The notes under the pieces are model-generated. The model saw only the letters and a list, made by a program, of their open reading frames with translations. It did no database searches and was not told the origin of the DNA. From contig DBOL01000055.1 in NCBI GenBank assembly GCA_002299555.1, positions 1 to 58,091 on the forward strand: 58,091 nucleotides of DNA, in the 5' to 3' direction. Both the position numbers and the translations under genes were made by a program. Origin of the DNA: Candidatus Aminicenantes bacterium UBA647 (lineage in GTDB: Bacteria > Acidobacteriota > Aminicenantia > UBA2199). Of this stretch, positions 17,797 through 32,097 are shown one piece after another; within the stretch, counting starts at the first letter, position 1; each line of letters starts with the position of its first letter.

Positions 17797-17822
17797 AACT
17801 ATGTCGACATGTCGACATAGTT
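17797..17822. repeat. Perfect 26-bp palindrome AACTATGTCGACATGTCGACATAGTT, candidate ParB-family binding site or operator
   Basis: Checked base by base as its own reverse complement. It ends 1 nt before the parA -35 box. Confidence 0.9.
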
Positions 17823-17823
17823 C

Positions 17824-17852
17824 TTGACAAACCAAAATATATTATTTAGTAT
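17824..17852 (+). promoter_or_regulatory. parAB promoter TTGACA-17-TAGTAT
   Basis: -35 at 17824-17829, -10 at 17847-17852, then an AAGGAG SD and GTG at 17875. Confidence 0.7.
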
Positions 17853-17874: not shown

Positions 17875-18630
17875 GTGATAATAACAATCGCAAATCAGAA
17901 AGGGGGTGTGGGCAAAACCACTACTTCCATCAATTTGTCAGCAGCATTGGCTTTCCTGGGATATAAAACATTACTTATAGATCTTGACCCTCAAGCTAAC
18001 TCAACAGTTACTTTTATAGATCATGGAAGTATTGAAAATTCCGCATATGATCTGCTTGAGAACAGTGAGTTGGGATTTGAGGAGGTTGTTAAACCAACCT
18101 CGGTAATAAACCTGTCAATAATTCCTGCAGATATCTCAATGGCAAAACTAGAATCAAAGCTGATCGGTGAAATAGACAGCCATTTCAGACTGAAAGACAG
18201 ACTGGATACTTTCAAATTCAAATACGATTTCATCGTAATAGACACGCCTCCCACACTGGGATTGATAACAATCAACTCTTTTGTTGCCGCTACACATCTG
18301 CTGATACCAATTCAAAGTTCCTATTTTGCACTTGAAGGGACTGACGACCTTCTTGAAACCTTTGAAAAAGTAAGAATAAGGAGCAACCCGAATCTTTCAT
18401 TACTTGGAGTTCTGATAACCATGCATGACAAGAGGGTTGTAATAGCACAGGACAGCGAAAAGCATATCAAAAAATTATTCGGAGACAAAGTATTTAAAAC
18501 CAAAATATCAAGGAGCGTAAGGCTGGAAGAGAGTCCTGCCTATAAAGAATCGATCTTTACTTTTGCTCCCAATTCCAAAGGTGCATCTCAATACAAAAAA
18601 CTCGCCGAGGAGATAGTTAAAAATGACTAA
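17875..18630 (+). CDS. parA: ParA/Soj family ATPase
   Basis: NQKGGVGKTT deviant Walker A, DLDPQAN, IDTPP, and RLEESP. SD-supported GTG start; the TTG in the ORF track is the -35 box. Confidence 0.95.
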   Translation: MIITIANQKGGVGKTTTSINLSAALAFLGYKTLLIDLDPQANSTVTFIDHGSIENSAYDLLENSELGFEEVVKPTSVINLSIIPADISMAKLESKLIGEIDSHFRLKDRLDTFKFKYDFIVIDTPPTLGLITINSFVAATHLLIPIQSSYFALEGTDDLLETFEKVRIRSNPNLSLLGVLITMHDKRVVIAQDSEKHIKKLFGDKVFKTKISRSVRLEESPAYKESIFTFAPNSKGASQYKKLAEEIVKND

Positions 18631-19477
18631 AAAAGTAGGTTTACCGGACTTTGTTAAGTCAAGGCACGATAATCATTTCGTCGAAGAAATATCTTCCAGG
18701 ACAAGAACGTCTATCATTAGAAAGATTCCCGTAGAGAGAATTGTTCCAAACCTTATGCAGCCCAGGAAGGATTTTGGCAACATTGACGAACTTGCAAGAT
18801 CAATAGGGGAGAAGGGCATTCTGGAACCGATACTGGTAAGAGCAAAAGATGGCAAATTTGAGATCATTGCAGGAGAGAGGCGTTTCAGAGCTGCTAAACT
18901 AGCCGGTCTAAGAGAAATTCCATCCATAGAATTTGAAATTCCTGATAATGAAGCTCTCGAGTTATCTATAATAGAGAATATTCAAAGGAAGGACCTTAAT
19001 GTTTATGAACAGGCTTATTCACTGAAATCACTATCAGATATATACGGCTATACTCATGAGGAGATAGCGAAAAAGTTGGGGAAATCAAGGGTTACAATTT
19101 CAGAGCTTCTTCGGATAACCGATCTTCCACCGGATATAATTCAGAAATGTCAGCAATTAAAAATTGAATCTAAAACATTCCTTATAGAGTTGGCAAAAGT
19201 AGAAGATAAAAGTGAAATGTTTGAAATACTTGAAAAATACAAAGAAAAGCCATTCTCCAGAGATGAAATAAAAGAAAGAAGAAAGATGGCCAAATTACCT
19301 ACGCAAAAAACAAAACACAATGAATTCAAGTTCAAGTTCACATCACCGGACAAAAAAGTTAAACTTAATTTCAATATCAGGTCTGAAGAAAATGAAGGGA
19401 ACAAAAAAGAGGTACTGATCTCAGTGCTGAATAATCTTATAAAGGAAATACAAAAAGGCAATATTAAGGATTTGTGA
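18623..19477 (+). CDS. parB: ParB/Spo0J family protein
   Basis: QPRKDF, GILEPILV, IAGERRFRA (CTP-binding), ENIQRKDL and an HTH; 8-nt overlap with parA. Confidence 0.93.
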   Translation: MTKKVGLPDFVKSRHDNHFVEEISSRTRTSIIRKIPVERIVPNLMQPRKDFGNIDELARSIGEKGILEPILVRAKDGKFEIIAGERRFRAAKLAGLREIPSIEFEIPDNEALELSIIENIQRKDLNVYEQAYSLKSLSDIYGYTHEEIAKKLGKSRVTISELLRITDLPPDIIQKCQQLKIESKTFLIELAKVEDKSEMFEILEKYKEKPFSRDEIKERRKMAKLPTQKTKHNEFKFKFTSPDKKVKLNFNIRSEENEGNKKEVLISVLNNLIKEIQKGNIKDL

Positions 19478-19555
19478 TAAAAAACTAACGCAAGTTTACA
19501 TAATATATCTTATCCGAACCAAAACATGTTACTTAACAGCTCAATTGTAAAATCC

Positions 19556-19759
19556 TTACCTGGCATTTTTGGATCTTTTAAGTAACCTGTTGGGAAGAGT
19601 TATTATGGATTTAAGAAGGTCAAATACCGCTCCTACCGCAAATCCGAAAATTCTGAGCGGTAACAACAATATCCATATGATCGGATACAATATCAATGCA
19701 AGTAGAGCTAACGGCCAACTGAAATAGAACAATATCATCCACAGTAAAAATCCTTTCAT
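19556..19759 (-). CDS. Small hydrophobic membrane protein (67 aa)
   Basis: AAGGAG SD before the ATG at 19759; sequence WPLALLALILYPIIWILLLPLRIFG...LPNRLL. Confidence 0.75.
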   Translation of the reverse strand: MKGFLLWMILFYFSWPLALLALILYPIIWILLLPLRIFGFAVGAVFDLLKSIITLPNRLLKRSKNAR

Positions 19760-19868
19760 TTTTTCTCCTTTAATATTTATACTCATATTCGAACATATTA
19801 GTTCTTATATGATTATTTTTCTATTGTCCCCTATCGAATATAAAATATTATATATAACTATTACCAGA

Positions 19869-24983: not shown

Positions 24984-27182
24984 TTACTTATCCTCTGAAT
25001 TAAATATAGCAAATATTTTCCTTCTTCTGTTGTTCCTTCTGATCCAGACTACAATACCGAAAATAACAAACCCCAGAGGAAGACCAGCAATATTCAGAAC
25101 TTTAATAAAAGTTCTGGTAAATGATTTAGTATCTGATACAGGATTGAACTTCTGCTTTTTCCCTCTCATCTCTGCTATTTTCTCTTTCCCGTTAAGATAA
25201 TCCAGAATATTAAGGATGAACGTTGAGTTTGGTGATAATCCATTCTCATCGACCAGATTATTTTTAATTAATTCTGAAGATCCGATCACAAATATCCTTG
25301 CTGCTTTTCCTGTTTTCAAGATCTCACTTGTACTTACAAATTCATTTTTTATCAGCTTTTCAACTTTTTTGTCATCTCCCTTATCATCTTCTTTCTCTTT
25401 TTTCACAGGTTTTTCAGGAATGGTCTTATCTGCAAAATAACTCGAGAACTTCCCCTCGGCAATATATGCGAGATCCATTTGTGATTTTTCTTCATCTGAT
25501 TGCGGAGGCTTTATCATCATAGGCATGAGGTTGATCTTACCCTTCATCTCCCAGGATCTGGAGGAAGACGAAAATACTTTTGAATATTTCACTCCCTCTC
25601 TTTTCTCGATCTCCAAAGGTGATACTTTTATAGCAACCAGATGTTTAATATTTTTCAAAAACCCGAATTTATGATTAATATTTTCATTTTTGATAACCGG
25701 AGCAAAATATATGGGCATCTCATTGTTATTCTGATCCCTGTTAACATAACAACTCTCATCCAGAAGATAAGATTTTTTCGAAGTTATCCCGTAATGAGAG
25801 ATGAGTTTATCTATTCCAGTATTTAAAGGCATATAAACAGGCTGCCTGTAACCATACATTTGCTGACTTTGCTGCTGTTTTATCTCTCTGAATGAGTCAA
25901 TCATTATTGCCAGGGAGCCACCTTTCATTAAAAACTGATCTATCATGAATAGTTCCCAATCAGTAAAATTTTGAGTCGGCCCGGCAACTATAAGAGTATC
26001 AATATTATCCGGAATTTCCCCTCCATCTTTAAGACTTACTTCTTTCAGGGTGTACTCTTTATTAACCAGTGATTTAAAGTTTGAGATCTCAGATTGAGGC
26101 TGCTGCTGAAACATCTGCATCTGAGGTGAGGTCTGGGCAGATATTGACAATGTTCCATTTGAAATAAGGTAACCGATATCTTCATTAATGTTTATTACTT
26201 TATCTATATTGTCATTAATGAAAGTTTCAATTTCTTCATCACCTATTATAAAATATTCTTCCTGAATACCTTTGTTCGTAAGGTTCAGTTTTTTTGACAT
26301 CAGATTTTTCTGGACAGAGATCCCGTCGTATTCAAGGCCGATTGCGATCACTCCTCTTCCAGGATCAACTGTTTTTCCTTCGGGAGATTTTAACTCCGGC
26401 CACTCTATACCCATATGTTTGAATCCGGATATAATATTCTCAGGAACGGATCCTGAAGAAGGATCATATGACCTGATTTCCAGTTTTCCATAAACCTTAT
26501 GATTCACTTTCTCAATTATTTTTCCTATCCTTGATTCGATCTTGTCAAGATCCTCCAACTTGATAAGCGGGGCTATTAATGACAGAGAGGATGAGTTGAG
26601 GATGTTGATCTTGATATTCTCTTTAAGTTTAAGTAGAGCTGATATTTTATTGCTCAATTTCTGTATCGTCGTTGTTATCTTATATTCAAGATCTTCAGTA
26701 GAAATTATAGCGGGGATCTTCTCGACAAGATCTCCGTGTATAAATACCATCCCCATGTAAGCTTTCTGTATCTTTGCTTCATCCTGTTCAATTTTTTGAA
26801 CATTTACCGGATAGATTCCGTAACTTTTTGCAATTTTTCTGTTTTCTTCAGCTTTTTCGCTCAAATCACCCTCTTTAGCATTTACATCATAAAACCTGAA
26901 ACTAAGATTCTTATTCGAGTTGATCTCATATTCCTCCAGTATGTCATGAAGATATCTCTCAACATTATTATATGGAGAAGGGAGATTCTTAGAGAAAAAA
27001 ACATTGATAGTTAAAGGTTCAGTTAAAGAATTAACTGCCTCTTCTGAAGCATCGGAAAGTGAATAAAGTCCGCTCGATGTAAGATCTGCCCTGAAGTAGA
27101 TACTTCCTGCTGCAACGTTTATTAATAAAAGCATTATCAGATATAATCCGAATTTGTAATATTTATTTTTATTTTCATTCAT
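24984..27182 (-). CDS. GldG-family ABC-system auxiliary protein
   Basis: RADLTSSGLYSLS, GMVFIHG, LEYKITTTI, LIVAGP, DQFLMKGG and a C-terminal TM helix. Confidence 0.88.
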   Translation of the reverse strand: MNENKNKYYKFGLYLIMLLLINVAAGSIYFRADLTSSGLYSLSDASEEAVNSLTEPLTINVFFSKNLPSPYNNVERYLHDILEEYEINSNKNLSFRFYDVNAKEGDLSEKAEENRKIAKSYGIYPVNVQKIEQDEAKIQKAYMGMVFIHGDLVEKIPAIISTEDLEYKITTTIQKLSNKISALLKLKENIKINILNSSSLSLIAPLIKLEDLDKIESRIGKIIEKVNHKVYGKLEIRSYDPSSGSVPENIISGFKHMGIEWPELKSPEGKTVDPGRGVIAIGLEYDGISVQKNLMSKKLNLTNKGIQEEYFIIGDEEIETFINDNIDKVININEDIGYLISNGTLSISAQTSPQMQMFQQQPQSEISNFKSLVNKEYTLKEVSLKDGGEIPDNIDTLIVAGPTQNFTDWELFMIDQFLMKGGSLAIMIDSFREIKQQQSQQMYGYRQPVYMPLNTGIDKLISHYGITSKKSYLLDESCYVNRDQNNNEMPIYFAPVIKNENINHKFGFLKNIKHLVAIKVSPLEIEKREGVKYSKVFSSSSRSWEMKGKINLMPMMIKPPQSDEEKSQMDLAYIAEGKFSSYFADKTIPEKPVKKEKEDDKGDDKKVEKLIKNEFVSTSEILKTGKAARIFVIGSSELIKNNLVDENGLSPNSTFILNILDYLNGKEKIAEMRGKKQKFNPVSDTKSFTRTFIKVLNIAGLPLGFVIFGIVVWIRRNNRRRKIFAIFNSEDK

Positions 27183-27192
27183 TTTCTTTCTC

Positions 27193-27900
27193 CTATTTCT
27201 TCTCTTTCATAACCAGGTTTGCCCCATACAGAGCAATGAAGGAAATTGTTATGAAATACAAAATATCCCTGCTGTCTATTAAGCCCCTGGATATATTTTG
27301 AAAATGGAAATTTGCACTGAAATACTGGAAAAATCCAATAAAAGTATTAGGGATAAAATAGAGCAGGAAATCTGTCAGTAAAGTCAAAGCGAAACATATG
27401 GTCATCCCGGTTATAAATGCAATAACCTGATTACGGGTAAGTGAAGAAGCAAATATACCAATAGCACTGAAAGCAGCGCCGAGAAGGATAGCCCCGATAT
27501 AGCCTCCTATTACCGGACCCCAGTCCAATTCACCAACGAATGATATAGATATTGCATAGATAAGTGTAGGAAGCAGCATGATCACTATAAATGAGATTGC
27601 CGCAAGAAATTTCCCTAGTATTATATCACTGAATTTTACAGGAAGAGTAAGGAGAATTTCGTATGTTCCCAAATTCAATTCCTCTGAAAAAAGCTTCATG
27701 GTTATAGCCGGAACGATAAATGAGAAAGTTATTGGAAGGAGTGAAAAAAACCTCATCATGCTCGCCTGCCTGTTCAAAAAGAACGTTGAAAAGAATAGCC
27801 ATCCTATAACAAGCAAAAATAATGAGATCACAATATATGCAATGGGAGTGACAAAATAACTGTTGAATTCTTTCTTGAAAATGTGTTTTATATTTTTCAT
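27193..27900 (-). CDS. ABC-2 type permease (GldF-like)
   Basis: IFKKEFNSYF.TPIAY, PAITM...EE...GT.E.LLTLP, ILGKFLA and RGLIDSRD. Confidence 0.92.
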   Translation of the reverse strand: MKNIKHIFKKEFNSYFVTPIAYIVISLFLLVIGWLFFSTFFLNRQASMMRFFSLLPITFSFIVPAITMKLFSEELNLGTYEILLTLPVKFSDIILGKFLAAISFIVIMLLPTLIYAISISFVGELDWGPVIGGYIGAILLGAAFSAIGIFASSLTRNQVIAFITGMTICFALTLLTDFLLYFIPNTFIGFFQYFSANFHFQNISRGLIDSRDILYFITISFIALYGANLVMKEKK

Positions 27901-27902
27901 TA

Positions 27903-28619
27903 TTAGCTCCCTTTTGTGATCATTCTGAAAATAGTTTCAAAATTATCTTCATTGGTCGACTTTTTCAAATTTCCGATAGTGTCGTTCGCTTTAATTTCCC
28001 CTTCATCCATTATCACAACTCTGTCACAAGTTGCTTCGGCCTCACTAAGTATGTGAGTTGAAAAAATTATAGTTTTTTCCTTACCTATCCTTCTGATTAT
28101 ATCTCTTGTCTCGACTATCTGATTCGGGTCAAGTCCTGAGGTCGGTTCATCAAGTACAAGAATATCCGGATCCCCCATCAAAGCATGAGCTATCCCAACC
28201 CTCTGCCTGTATCCTTTTGAAAGCTCATCGATCGTTTTATGCATTACATTTTTCAACCTGCATATATCTGAAAGCTCTTTTAAATGAGAAAATTTATTAC
28301 TTTGACTTACATTCCTGATATCTGCAATATAGTTGAGATAGTCATAAACCAGCATATCCTTATAGATCGGAGCTGATTCAGGAAGATAACCGATCATCTT
28401 CTTTATTTCAACCATATCTTCATTTATATCAAAATCTTTCACTTTTATCGTTCCAGATGTTGGCTTAAGATAACCGGTTAATATTCTGTATGTAGTTGTT
28501 TTTCCGGCACCATTAGGGCCTAACAAACCTAATATTTCCCCTTTTTTAACCTCAAATGAAACACTCTTAAGTGCTTTTACATCCCCATAATTTTTTGACA
28601 ACTCAATAACCTGGATCAT
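27903..28619 (-). CDS. ABC transporter ATP-binding protein (GldA-like)
   Basis: GPNGAGKTT, LSKGYRQ, LDEPTSG and STH. The AGGAG SD supports the start at 28619. Confidence 0.95.
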   Translation of the reverse strand: MIQVIELSKNYGDVKALKSVSFEVKKGEILGLLGPNGAGKTTTYRILTGYLKPTSGTIKVKDFDINEDMVEIKKMIGYLPESAPIYKDMLVYDYLNYIADIRNVSQSNKFSHLKELSDICRLKNVMHKTIDELSKGYRQRVGIAHALMGDPDILVLDEPTSGLDPNQIVETRDIIRRIGKEKTIIFSTHILSEAEATCDRVVIMDEGEIKANDTIGNLKKSTNEDNFETIFRMITKGS

Positions 28620-28758
28620 TAAACTCTCCTGTTTGATTACGACATTTTCTAATTCTATCAAATTCATATCCGCTGTCAAGACCGCTATAAGTAAGTTTCC
28701 CAGATGTATGGATTGACTTTCCAAAACAATTAAACTATAAATCATTTTAGGAGAACTT

Positions 28759-29910
28759 ATGGAGAAATTATCCGGCGATGAATTGATCGCACTTATCAGT
28801 TCTGTATTTCCAAGATTAGACAATGACAGGAAGATGGGAATTCTTGTTGACATCCCACGGAGTGATAGTCAGGACAATGATGACTGGAAGAAAAGACGTG
28901 AGATATGCCGGAATTGGTATGCAGAATTAAGAAAAAGCATTGGTTCTATAGGATTGGAAAAGATCGATCTTATCGCCTACCCTGATGTGAAATCCAACAA
29001 TGCAGACCTCCCTGATTCAGGATATATTATTAAGGATAGCTTACCGGAAATAGAAAACGGCCTCCAGGAGAACGGAGTTTTAACCGGGTTCTCTGAAATA
29101 TTCAGGGATTACCAGATATTTCTTGCTCCTACCGAATACTCAACGACCGCACCTTTAAAAAATAGTGCCAAAAAATATGGATTCAGAGCCGCAACGATGC
29201 CGGGATTCTCAGATAAAATGATCCCTGCATTAAGAATAGATTATAATGAGGTATTCAGAAGGGTTAAACTTATAAAGAACCTTCTTGATCCTGCTGTAAA
29301 AGCAGAAGTAATATTTGAAGTTGATGATATAAGTGAATATCGAATGGATTTTGATCTCCGTTTCAGGAAAAGCCAAATGAGTTCCGGCCGGTTCACTGAT
29401 CCGGCAACTGCCGGAAATTTACCCAGTGGCGAAACTTATATAGTCCCTTATGAAGGTGAGCTTGAGGAGAAAAGTGAAACAAAGGGGACTCTTCCTGTTC
29501 AGATAGGAGGCGATGTCCTATTCTATTCCATAATTGAAAACAATGCAGTTGAAGTTCTCGGAAGTGGTGATTCCCTTAAATATGAAGCGGATTTTCTCCA
29601 AAATGAACCGGCTTACGGGAATATGGCTGAACTTGGATTTGGAGTATTGGGAGATTTCGGACTTGAGCCTATAAATGAGATCCTTCTCGATGAAAAACTC
29701 GGGTTTCATGTAGCATTCGGAAGAAGTGACCATTTCGGCGGGATAATCAGTCCGGATAAATTTTCAGCACCTGATAAAGTTATCCATCTGGATCGGGTCT
29801 ATATTCCCAAAATGCAACCGAGAGTATCAGTGAAATCTATCATTCTCCATTTTCCTGACAGAGACCCTGAACTGATTTTTGAGAACGGGAATTATATAGT
29901 ATTCGACTGA
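28759..29910 (+). CDS. Peptidase M29-like (AmpS/AmpT-type) aminopeptidase
   Basis: GNLPSGE, AELGFG, LLDEK and GFHVAFG metal-ligand motifs. Confidence 0.8.
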   Translation: MEKLSGDELIALISSVFPRLDNDRKMGILVDIPRSDSQDNDDWKKRREICRNWYAELRKSIGSIGLEKIDLIAYPDVKSNNADLPDSGYIIKDSLPEIENGLQENGVLTGFSEIFRDYQIFLAPTEYSTTAPLKNSAKKYGFRAATMPGFSDKMIPALRIDYNEVFRRVKLIKNLLDPAVKAEVIFEVDDISEYRMDFDLRFRKSQMSSGRFTDPATAGNLPSGETYIVPYEGELEEKSETKGTLPVQIGGDVLFYSIIENNAVEVLGSGDSLKYEADFLQNEPAYGNMAELGFGVLGDFGLEPINEILLDEKLGFHVAFGRSDHFGGIISPDKFSAPDKVIHLDRVYIPKMQPRVSVKSIILHFPDRDPELIFENGNYIVFD

Positions 29911-32097
29911 TCAGATTTCCAGGTTGGTAAATTCATTTGAAGTTTCAAATTCATATTCAGGATATTCGAAAACGGCCATCCTCGATTCTGTATTACCTAT
30001 TGAATAGCAATACAGACCCTCATAATCGGCCATATCTTCTCCCATTTCGCTTATCTGCCTCAGATATTCACTAATAGTTTTTGACTCTATGATCACAACT
30101 TTCCCCATTTTATTAATTACAGGACTATGTTTTCGGGTTTTGTCATAATCAAACTCAAGGATTCTCCTGCCATACCTTGTTATTCCAATAACACGAAAAG
30201 TCAGACTTTTCCCAACCCCCGGGAGGTTAATAACACTTCGGTCTGAAGCAAGAAATGGAATATTCTTCTGTTTCCTTATATCATTGATATAAGCCCTTAC
30301 CTTTCTGCTCTTATGGGGAAAACTCATTACTTTGTTCTGGCTGACCCTGTCAACTTTTCCCAGATATTTTTCTTCCCTTTGTTCCTGTACAAACCTTGCA
30401 ATAGGAGTGAAACTATGAAAATTCTCCATATATCCTTTTACACTGAATGTATAATAGCAAAGGATTCCGATGTCATTCAATGTTTTTCTAAGTTTCGCAT
30501 TGTGTCCCCTCCTTGACGCAGAAGCAGTATATACATGCTGATTTGTAACTATCCATCCGGAATCAAGGATCATTTTCACAGCTGTTTCGGTCTCTTTTGT
30601 AATTTCAAGAGGGGATTGGAAATGAGTTTGTATTATAAATTGTTTAATGCCTAACTTAAGTGCTTTTTCCCTGAACCAGGCAAGCACGTTACACAATTCA
30701 GGTGTGACACGCTGGGGAATATATGCAAGCAGCCTTGTACCTAATCTTACTCTGACAATTTCAGCATACTTGAAACCGTTTTTTCTCTCTTTATTGTCCG
30801 ATCTTTTAGATATTGCCATTTTATAAATTTCATCTAAAAGTTCCTTTAGAAATTTATCGGAACTCATCAAGGCATCTCCGCCTGTGATCAAAATATCCCT
30901 CAACTGGGAATCATACCTGAAATAATCCATTAATATTTTCTGCTTTTCCTTCCATTTCACTCCAGGTTTCAATTTTTCAAGATCAAAATTCAGGTGTCCT
31001 CTCTGAAAATCATACATTCTCTGACAACTTGTGCAGAGTCCTCCGCAAGCTCTTCCCGTCGAATCAGGAATAAGGATCGCAACTTCAGGATACCTCCTGT
31101 GAACATTCCTGTCCCCCGGCAGGATCCATCCGGCTGCATTCGGCTTCCCGGGTTCTACTATATCCTCTTTCTCCCACGCAACAATATGTCCGAACTCTTC
31201 AATCAATTGTTTACTATAAAAAACGTAATCTCTTATAGGAAGATCTGACCCAATTGCAAAATATGGCGCTCTGACATGTATCAGAGAAAGATAATATGGA
31301 TTTACAAAAAAAGGAATTCCTTTATTTTCAGCATCTTTAAGAATATTAATTGTATCAGGATCAAGTGAATTTCCGAGTAGTTCGTTAAGATCTTCTGGAT
31401 TTCTGACAGCAAACCTTAAATGGAATTTCCAGTTATTCCACCATTCCATCGCCTTAAGATATTTTTGCTCATGTGACAAATTTTCTTCAAACCTGAACCT
31501 TTTACTTGACACTTTGCCACTTTCTATCCATTGGATTATCTTGTTAAGGATCCTCTCTTTGTTCTCTTCACATAATCTTACTATCCTGGTATCAAGTCCG
31601 GAAACATACCTGTTCATCCAGTCAACAACTTTTTTCGGAGGAGTTTTTTTTGGACTCATTTCACCTCTGAACTGTCTGAACAGCATCACCATATCCTCAT
31701 AAAAATCCGGTTTGGCACCACCTGTACCGTAAGTTACTCCAAGCCATATCAATTTGATCGGGTTACTGACAGCTTTTTCCCCTCTCAGGTTCAGATCATT
31801 GAATTCCCTGCCCGCATTCTCAATATAATCCAGAATTCGTATCACTGCAATATCTTTGCTTTCAATTGAGCTTAATATTTTTCCTATGTTTTTTTTTTTT
31901 GTAAAATAATCAAAAGATTTTTGATTCTTTTTTAATTCATCAAGAGCAAGATTTCTTACCCCGACCATAGCCTCTGTTTCATTTCTGGCTCTTCTCATAA
32001 TTTCGCTTAATTTCTTATTCTCTTTTAATAATTGATTTAAAAGTTTATGCGAACTTACACTTATAGCAATTTTATCAAGGTTCTCTATATTGTTCAT
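29911..32097 (-). CDS. Long-form KamA family radical SAM protein (lysine 2,3-aminomutase-like)
   Basis: HRRYP, CGGLCTSC (CxxxCxxC), DILITGGD, RLGTR, THFQSP and PGVGK; SD before the ATG at 32097. Confidence 0.88.
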   Translation of the reverse strand: MNNIENLDKIAISVSSHKLLNQLLKENKKLSEIMRRARNETEAMVGVRNLALDELKKNQKSFDYFTKKKNIGKILSSIESKDIAVIRILDYIENAGREFNDLNLRGEKAVSNPIKLIWLGVTYGTGGAKPDFYEDMVMLFRQFRGEMSPKKTPPKKVVDWMNRYVSGLDTRIVRLCEENKERILNKIIQWIESGKVSSKRFRFEENLSHEQKYLKAMEWWNNWKFHLRFAVRNPEDLNELLGNSLDPDTINILKDAENKGIPFFVNPYYLSLIHVRAPYFAIGSDLPIRDYVFYSKQLIEEFGHIVAWEKEDIVEPGKPNAAGWILPGDRNVHRRYPEVAILIPDSTGRACGGLCTSCQRMYDFQRGHLNFDLEKLKPGVKWKEKQKILMDYFRYDSQLRDILITGGDALMSSDKFLKELLDEIYKMAISKRSDNKERKNGFKYAEIVRVRLGTRLLAYIPQRVTPELCNVLAWFREKALKLGIKQFIIQTHFQSPLEITKETETAVKMILDSGWIVTNQHVYTASASRRGHNAKLRKTLNDIGILCYYTFSVKGYMENFHSFTPIARFVQEQREEKYLGKVDRVSQNKVMSFPHKSRKVRAYINDIRKQKNIPFLASDRSVINLPGVGKSLTFRVIGITRYGRRILEFDYDKTRKHSPVINKMGKVVIIESKTISEYLRQISEMGEDMADYEGLYCYSIGNTESRMAVFEYPEYEFETSNEFTNLEI

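Follow-up and report, generated by a model that had tools for sequence, protein, structure and literature searches.

The perfect palindrome that lies upstream of a parAB operon in this acidobacterial genome is very likely a loading site, here named parS2, for a second ParABS system (ParA2/ParB2) that is separate from the canonical one and marks the replication terminus. This reading draws on what was observed by computation: the sequence of the palindrome, its uniqueness and conservation, its co-occurrence with ParB2, its linkage to dif and the terminus, and the membership of ParB2 in the ParB family. Within 1.7 kb, the window (the whole stretch of 58,091 nucleotides that was analysed) holds parS2, a promoter, parA2, parB2 and dif, in that order (Table 1). 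An earlier reading made from the sequence alone, hereafter the sequence-only reading, had put the palindrome forward as a novel parS-type site and as the cognate loading site of the adjacent ParB. This proposal is well supported, because the site co-occurs with the ParB2 clade, is linked to parB2 and is conserved at dif and the terminus; the covariation of its half-sites and a position equivalent to that of canonical parS lend it further support. Absent from that reading was the key point, namely that a second ParABS lies at the replication terminus, 1.7 kb from dif.

Table 1 Features of the parS2-parA2-parB2-dif region, with positions counted in the window
Feature	Position	Strand	Remarks
26-bp perfect palindrome AACTATGTCGACATGTCGACATAGTT	17797..17822	.	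Outer 4 bp on each side not conserved in relatives
parS2, conserved 18-bp core ATGTCGACATGTCGACAT	17801..17818	.	Proposed ParB2 loading site
parA2-parB2 promoter, sigma-70-like	17824..17852	+	TTGACA (17824-17829), 17-nt spacer, TAGTAT (17847-17852); 10/12 sigma-70 match
parA2	17875..18630	+	Soj-type small ParA ATPase, 251 aa, KGGVGKT; 45% identity to ParA1 on contig C69
parB2	18623..19477	+	ParB-family CTPase-fold protein, 284 aa
Degenerate parS2 relic TGTCAGCAATTAAAAA, inside parB2	19148..19163	+	Codons C-Q-Q-L-K-I; position where other acidobacterial classes keep an intact parS2
dif (XerCD) site GGTTCGGATAAGATATATTATGTAAACT = GGTTCGGATAA-GATATA-TTATGTAAACT	19493..19520	-	Begins 16 nt past the parB2 stop; unique in the genome

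The palindrome, its operon and the origin module of the same genome

The perfect 26-bp palindrome that the sequence-only reading had placed beside the -35 of parAB was borne out; the range given for it, 17797-17829, also takes in the TTGACA hexamer. In the assembly (2.66 Mb, 37.6% G+C, 115 contigs) it is among the top three zero-spacer perfect palindromes by length. Its 16-mer TGTCGACATGTCGACA occurs as a single copy in the window, where 0.09 copies are expected at up to 3 mismatches, and as a single copy in the whole assembly, where the runners-up have 3 mismatches. The ends of the site, TGT...ACA, are those of canonical parS and its interior differs, as had been said: only TGT and ACA are shared with TGTTNCACGTGAAACA. 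It had further been said that a palindrome combined with a tandem ATGTCGAC repeat is very unlikely to arise by chance. Over 200 mononucleotide shuffles of the window the longest arm averaged 8.3, but at least one shuffle gave 13, so that the significance of the palindrome comes mainly from its conservation. The repeat is incidental: it follows from A at half-site positions 6 and 8 and is missing from most relatives, where the TGTCGGCGCGCCGACA form is found. Conservation in relatives is confined to the central 18 bp rather than the full 26 bp, and both the 26-bp extent and the tandem repeat are peculiar to this lineage. Several of the genome's longest perfect palindromes, TTTTTTCTGATCATGATCAGAAAAAA among them, are centred on CTGATCAG or TGATCA (C27:7618-7643, C65:17300-17323, C8:469-490), and these may be sites of another dimeric DNA-binding protein.

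A single base separates the 26-bp palindrome from TTGACA, and 6 nt separate the end of the 16-mer from the -35. A TTGACA-type promoter is also found upstream of parA2 in relatives; the close adjacency of site and promoter, which the sequence-only reading had described, holds in the window but is specific to this genus and not a general feature. The parA2 start is most likely the GTG at 17875, which is preceded by AAGGAG. As had been noted, the ParB encoded downstream has an intact CTP-binding motif: following an N-terminal GLPxxxKxRHDxHFVE, the QPR, GERRFRA and ENIQRKDL motifs are all present, together with a helix-turn-helix, GKSRVTISE, an 'SKT' that replaces 'GHA', and a predicted beta-beta-alpha C-terminal domain. 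The genes flanking the module are core genes (der, ispF and the HAD hydrolase).

The dif site came to light as a conserved 28-bp element when the sequences 3' of parB2 were aligned. In its XerD arm it is identical to B. subtilis dif, and over its whole length it matches B. subtilis dif and E. coli dif at 22 of 28 positions each (reference sequences from PMC3025954). A first dif regular expression (ATAAT-N6-TTATGTNAA, up to 1 mismatch) had given nothing convincing in the window or in congeners; the real dif has GATAAG. The palindrome itself was also considered as dif and set aside, being without the arms of such a site (two of 11 bp around a 6-bp spacer, the XerD arm TTATGTxAA) and multicopy in some genomes, with the true dif 1.7 kb away. 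Just past dif, positions 19556-19786 (- strand) hold an ORF of 76 aa that matches nothing in Pfam and for which two hydrophobic segments are predicted; a similar sequence is present in close congeners (loci L002 and L003) and not in other genera.

A second parAB pair was identified by tblastn in the same genome, on contig C69, with identities of 45% (ParA) and 35% (ParB). A perfect canonical parS, TGTTTCACGTGAAACA, lies at C69:23840-23855, just 5' of the parA1 ribosome-binding site, and dnaA (C69:24772-26067) is found 0.9 kb from the parAB1 module. Since canonical parS, parAB1 and dnaA occur together there, contig C69 was taken to hold the origin module. This module spans C69:22100-26067 and comprises dnaA, an rsmG-like gene, canonical parS, parA1 and parB1, then a bactofilin gene and kdsB, with the rsmG-like gene as the upstream neighbour of parAB1 and the latter two genes as its downstream neighbours. 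The parAB genes of the window are a second system, ParAB2, separate from the canonical dnaA-parS-parA1-parB1. In relatives, canonical parS is present in one or two copies, mostly just 5' of parA1; at the ParB1 loci of 20 relatives that were examined, it is usually within ~40 nt upstream of that gene. With canonical parS upstream of parA1 and parS2 upstream of parA2, each ParAB pair therefore has its own palindrome at an equivalent position.

ParB2 and its proposed site across the Acidobacteriota

ParB2 scores 96.6 bits against PF02195, 149.6 bits against TIGR00180 (cut-off 58.45) and 56.5 bits against PF17762. Among solved structures, those nearest in sequence are T. thermophilus Spo0J (the best match; 1VZ0, E = 4.5e-39), Noc and Caulobacter ParB, and a Foldseek comparison of the ParB2 AlphaFold model (mean pLDDT 81.5) with the Caulobacter ParB-parS structure 6T1F_D gave a TMt of 0.84 and an rmsd of 2.4 A. 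The beta-beta-alpha unit, a candidate C-terminal dimerisation domain, is predicted by the model at residues 234-278, the PDB matches being C-terminally truncated proteins. Across 24 ParB2 sequences, Q46, R48, G84-E85-R86-R87, E118, N119 and R122 are invariant, and P47 and Q121 nearly so.

A tree of 152 ParBs split 78 ParB2 sequences from 74 canonical ones, acidobacterial ParB1 included, with 100% support. All 78 come from Acidobacteriota or from unclassified genomes, and branching within the ParB2 clade tracks taxonomy. In a scan of one genome per species, of which the best 80 loci were kept, full-length relatives were likewise found in Acidobacteriota only, plus one unclassified MAG. The taxa represented among these 80 loci are Aminicenantes, Saccharicenans, Thermoanaerobaculia, Blastocatellia/Pyrinomonadaceae, Vicinamibacterales and Acidiferrales; below the ParB2 relatives in this set, scores fall sharply to the canonical ParBs of other phyla.

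The discrimination between parS and NBS has been shown experimentally to be set by positions 173, 179, 184 and 201, with R173 reading half-site position 1 and R201 reading C at position 6 (PMC7383237). By Caulobacter numbering, R173 is retained in ParB2, whereas the canonical N178 is replaced by an invariant E and the canonical G201 by K or R ('SKS' instead of 'GHAR'). On the DNA side, G1 is common to parS2 and parS, and position 6 of parS2 is C; the inner five bases of the parS2 half-site are CG(G/A)C(G/A), as against TTCAC in the canonical half-site. From these sequences we infer that G1 and C6 of parS2 would agree with the known ParB specificity determinants. The canonical N-terminal peptide LG(R/K)GL is also missing from ParB2, which has GLPxxxKMRHDxHFVE there, whereas ParB1 of the same genomes has LGKG(I/L). 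The only families in which the ParB2 peptide is missing are the two where no ParA2 is encoded next to ParB2, and this pattern suggests that GLPxxxKMRHDxHFVE is a ParA2-specific interaction peptide.

Within the class, a ParB match was found in all 41 relatives and two or more such matches in 39. A scan of this and related genomes for the motif near parAB orthologues, as the sequence-only reading had suggested, had a clear outcome: the pattern TGTCGNCNNGNCGACA is present in 34 of the 41 class genomes (whole-genome scan), usually as one copy on the parAB2 contig, whereas a reversed-pattern control matched in 3 of 41. Upstream of parA2, most class relatives carry TGTCGACATGTCGACA or a symmetric form of it, for example TGTCGGCATGCCGACA, TGTCGACGCGTCGACA or TGTCGGCGCGCCGACA, with 55 to ~170 nt between the 16-mer and the parA2 start.

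Over the phylum, the consensus of the core is ATGTCG(A/G)C(A/G)|(T/C)G(T/C)CGACAT. In a sample of 401 genomes the best ParB2 E-values were bimodal, and the site was found in 185 of 223 ParB2-positive genomes (83%) as against 34 of 178 ParB2-negative ones (19%), the latter being near background, since a control pattern matched in 14-16% of the genomes in this sample. The co-occurrence of parS2 and ParB2 has a Fisher p of 1.6e-39, a value that ignores shared ancestry. The link between parS2 and parB2 takes three forms: the site is found 5' of parA2, within parB2 or at the 3' end of the latter. Outside Aminicenantia, the usual form is TGTCGGCGCGCCGACA, which most often occupies codons 176-181 of parB2 (C-R-R-A-D-I) or the 3' end of the gene. 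The two half-sites covary: among 66 distinct sites, positions 6 and 11 are G6:C11 in 44, A6:T11 in 17 and mixed in 5, and flank position -1 is A in 80% of half-sites. There are 1-6 copies of parS2 per genome, with 4-6 in larger genomes, where they are spread over 50-130 kb.

The remaining 38 of the 223 ParB2-positive genomes gave no match to the pattern; these include most Pyrinomonadaceae-type genomes and a family of loci designated f6. An alternative palindrome was sought in unmatched ParB2 loci (L059-L061 of Pyrinomonadaceae type, L034/L042/L043 in family f6 and L023/L024 in family f2), with nothing convincing found, and inspection of the alignment for covariation of the ParB2 recognition helix with A6 or G6 site type gave no clean pattern. 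One pattern match in genome G108 (TGTCGACGAGGCGACA) and second matches inside parA2 of G003 and G006 (TGTCGACTTGACGACA) are non-palindromic and were therefore set aside as probable chance or coding conservation.

Position at the terminus, competing readings and a possible role

The presence of dif places the replication terminus within the window, where cumulative GC skew has its maximum at about 18-20 kb. The maximum and the site also coincide in two congeners with megabase contigs: in G003 the site lies at 989,684 and the skew switches at 990-1000 kb, and in G006 the site lies at 270,531 and the skew switches at 260-270 kb. In ten closed or near-closed genomes from other classes (G143, G283, G347, G356, G388, G127, G081, G189, G359 and G423), parS2 sites or parB2 are found 0.44-0.50 genome lengths from dnaA, and dnaA is beside canonical parS wherever that motif was found. 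Single-contig genomes carry both ParABS modules, as in G359, where both are on contig C1. The one closed chromosome from the same class, CP070750.1 (G422; 1.8 Mb sampled), has parB2 0.41 genome lengths from dnaA and neither confirms nor refutes the location, because its GC skew is patchy. Unlike the typical origin-proximal parS, parS2 thus coincides with the GC-skew maximum, is 0.1-2.7 kb from dif and lies roughly across the chromosome from dnaA.

A dif-like site was found no more than 1.5 kb from parB2 in 52 of 79 loci. In family f2, parAB2 is elsewhere, on a different contig, and the palindrome lies 0.2-2.7 kb from dif, with two copies flanking dif in G030. Because the palindrome stays at dif in this family when parAB2 is not there, parS2 appears to have been selected to lie at dif and the terminus rather than at the promoter. 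Five sites lie on both sides of dif, over 130 kb, in G143, a genome from the Vicinamibacterales.

The sequence-only reading had left it open whether the palindrome serves as an operator, a second centromere or both, and it is the centromere that fits these data better. If the palindrome were only a transcriptional operator, through which ParB2 or another repressor autoregulates parA2-parB2 with no centromere role, one could point to the 16-mer that ends 6 nt before the -35 in this genus and to ParB-family proteins that are repressors, such as KorB, which is among the structural matches of the ParB2 model. Between genera, however, the distance from the site to the -35 varies from 6 to >100 nt; other classes have the site within parB2 or behind that gene; family f2 has it beside dif, on another contig than parAB2; and some genomes carry 4-6 copies over 50-130 kb. 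An operator and nothing more is therefore an unlikely description of the site. Autoregulation is plausible in this genus, where the site is centred at about -50, and cannot be the conserved function. With ~6 nt between the site and the -35, ParB2 probably has, here, a secondary effect on the expression of its own operon.

It would also be possible for a different terminus-specific protein, whether a MatP-like organiser, a replication-termination factor or a Xer accessory factor, to bind the palindrome, in which case the link to parB2 would be co-location only. Both the site and parB2 do sit at the terminus, and where parAB2 has been relocated the site is still found by dif. Set against this are the 83% of ParB2-positive genomes that have the site and the background level in ParB2-negative ones, the embedding of the site at the same parB2 codons in several classes, an arrangement that mirrors parS upstream of parA1, and the TGT...ACA ends common to parS together with the R173 that ParB2 keeps; a perfect palindrome, moreover, cannot act as a polar fork trap. 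We accordingly give little credence to a different binding protein.

The module abuts dif, and small ParA/ParB pairs with a private parS are typical of plasmids and secondary replicons, which would be expected if parS2-parA2-parB2 were a plasmid cassette or a cassette of a dif-integrating element (IMEX), captured at dif and without chromosomal function. The genome nevertheless has a single good dif, with none on the other side of the module, and the flanking genes are the core genes der, ispF and the HAD hydrolase. The ParB2 tree also tracks taxonomy over at least five classes, with identity that decays with taxonomic distance, and ParB2 groups with chromosomal ParBs and not with RepB or SopB types, all of which makes capture of such a cassette very improbable. 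Finally, that the palindrome is an intrinsic terminator hairpin of the upstream HAD-hydrolase gene, or a product of chance, is scarcely tenable: it starts 6 nt past the HAD stop codon and its RNA folds to an 11-bp stem (-17.6 kcal/mol, z = -5.7), but the hairpin is followed by CTTGACAAACC with no T-tract on the + strand, no terminator was listed there by a scan, members of the 16-mer family are also found within coding sequence and in settings of other kinds, and the exact 16-mer is kept across genera with differing neighbour genes.

Returning to parS2 as the loading site of a second ParABS, we infer from these genomic patterns that ParB2 would bind the site, load in a CTP-dependent manner and interact with ParA2 in carrying out its cellular function. 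In such a scheme, the two monomers of a ParB2 dimer would each read one half-site, TGTCG(A/G)C(A/G), after which ParB2, like canonical ParB, would form a closed CTP-dependent clamp that slides onto the neighbouring DNA, and the resulting partition complex at parS2 would be positioned by ParA2. The two systems in the cell would be kept apart by the inner five bases of the half-site, by residues of the ParB2 recognition region and by the N-terminal ParA-interaction peptide. The most likely role for ParAB2 would be to position or hold the dif/terminus region, for instance at the division plane for FtsK/XerCD dimer resolution, and in late segregation; that the cellular function is to position dif is a conjecture with close to even chances of being right. 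Put as a dedicated terminus centromere, at which a second ParABS loads at parS2 flanking dif and either actively brings the terminus with dif to the division plane or keeps sister termini there, the proposal is a tentative one, which we would rate a little short of an even bet. Were it true, both XerCD/FtsK dimer resolution and the late steps of segregation would be tied to a ParA gradient, and the system would be a ParABS-based functional counterpart of MatP-matS, beside but independent of the origin ParABS.

The likeness of ParAB2 to chromosomal ParABS (Soj/Spo0J-parS of B. subtilis and T. thermophilus, ParAB-parS of C. crescentus) extends to the same small Walker-type ParA, a CTP-motif ParB with a helix-turn-helix and, as predicted for ParB2, a C-terminal domain, and a parA-parB operon, as well as to a few-copy 16-bp palindrome with TGT...ACA ends that lies next to or inside parB; parS lies inside spo0J. 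Apart from the differences in site and protein given above, canonical ParABS is found near oriC, whereas ParAB2 is at dif and the terminus and coexists with canonical ParABS on the same chromosome. Non-cross-reacting ParABS systems, each with a private parS, coexist in Vibrio cholerae (ParAB2-parS2) and Burkholderia cenocepacia (c2, c3 and p1). In these multipartite genomes each system serves a separate replicon near its origin, whereas here both are apparently on one chromosome, at origin and terminus. In Enterobacteria, MatP-matS is a site-specific protein with short palindromes that are confined to the terminus around dif, and it links terminus positioning to division. MatP, however, is of an unrelated, ribbon-helix-helix family without an NTPase partner, and there are 23 matS over ~800 kb as against 1-6 parS2 within 130 kb at most.

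Noc-NBS of Bacillota is likewise a ParB paralogue with a new 16-bp palindrome, acquired via positions 173, 179, 184 and 201, and there too a basic residue at 201 goes with C at half-site position 6 (PMC7383237). Noc differs in having Q173, no ParA partner, an N-terminal membrane helix and many sites that are depleted near the terminus, whereas ParB2 keeps R173, has its own ParA2 and has 1-6 sites concentrated at the terminus; its score against the Noc family (TIGR04285) is 163 bits, as against a cut-off of 315, and its positions 179 and 184 are not basic.

To our knowledge, ParABS systems have been described as origin-segregation machines, the chromosomal exceptions being Noc, in which ParA was lost, or systems of separate replicons. 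A literature search, of incomplete coverage, returned no report of the site sequence, of a terminus ParABS or of a second chromosomal ParABS in Acidobacteriota. What is new here is a putative ParABS with both a new site specificity and a new chromosomal location. If this is true, a vertically inherited, phylum-wide second ParABS with its own parS beside dif would represent reuse of the CTP-clamp and ParA-gradient machinery at the opposite chromosome pole. ParAB1 and ParAB2 would then offer natural co-resident ParB/parS and ParA/ParB-peptide pairs for the study of how specificity evolves, ParB2-parS2 could supply a new DNA-labelling pair for imaging, and ParAB2 would open the study of terminus organisation outside Enterobacteria. 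The parS2-dif pair would also be a practical terminus marker in fragmented acidobacterial metagenome-assembled genomes.

Variant loci

Several loci depart from the arrangement seen in the window. In family f4 (L038/G027 and G032), ParB2 is without both parA2 and the N-terminal peptide; parS2 and the predicted start codon of parB2 overlap, with dif 137 nt downstream. With parS2 at the parB2 start, dif this close and parA2 missing, this family is taken to represent a reduced ParB2-parS2-dif unit. Family f6 (L034/G039, L042/G029 and L043/G034) has a ParB2-clade protein without the N-terminal peptide, an adjacent parA2 or a parS2-pattern site, and in G039 the ParB2-like gene is 63 kb from dnaA; this protein may be an orphan ParB2 with a different role. 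At the f2 locus L033 (G040:C2, ~25900-31900), the relocated parS2 is preceded, at ~30 nt, by a gene for a tyrosine recombinase like xerC/xerD, and dif is 2.1 kb away from the site. Lastly, at L016/L041 (G013:C471), an AT-rich tandem duplication of ~100 bp, followed by a run of N, is found between parB2 and dif, and may be either an assembly artefact or a terminus repeat expansion.
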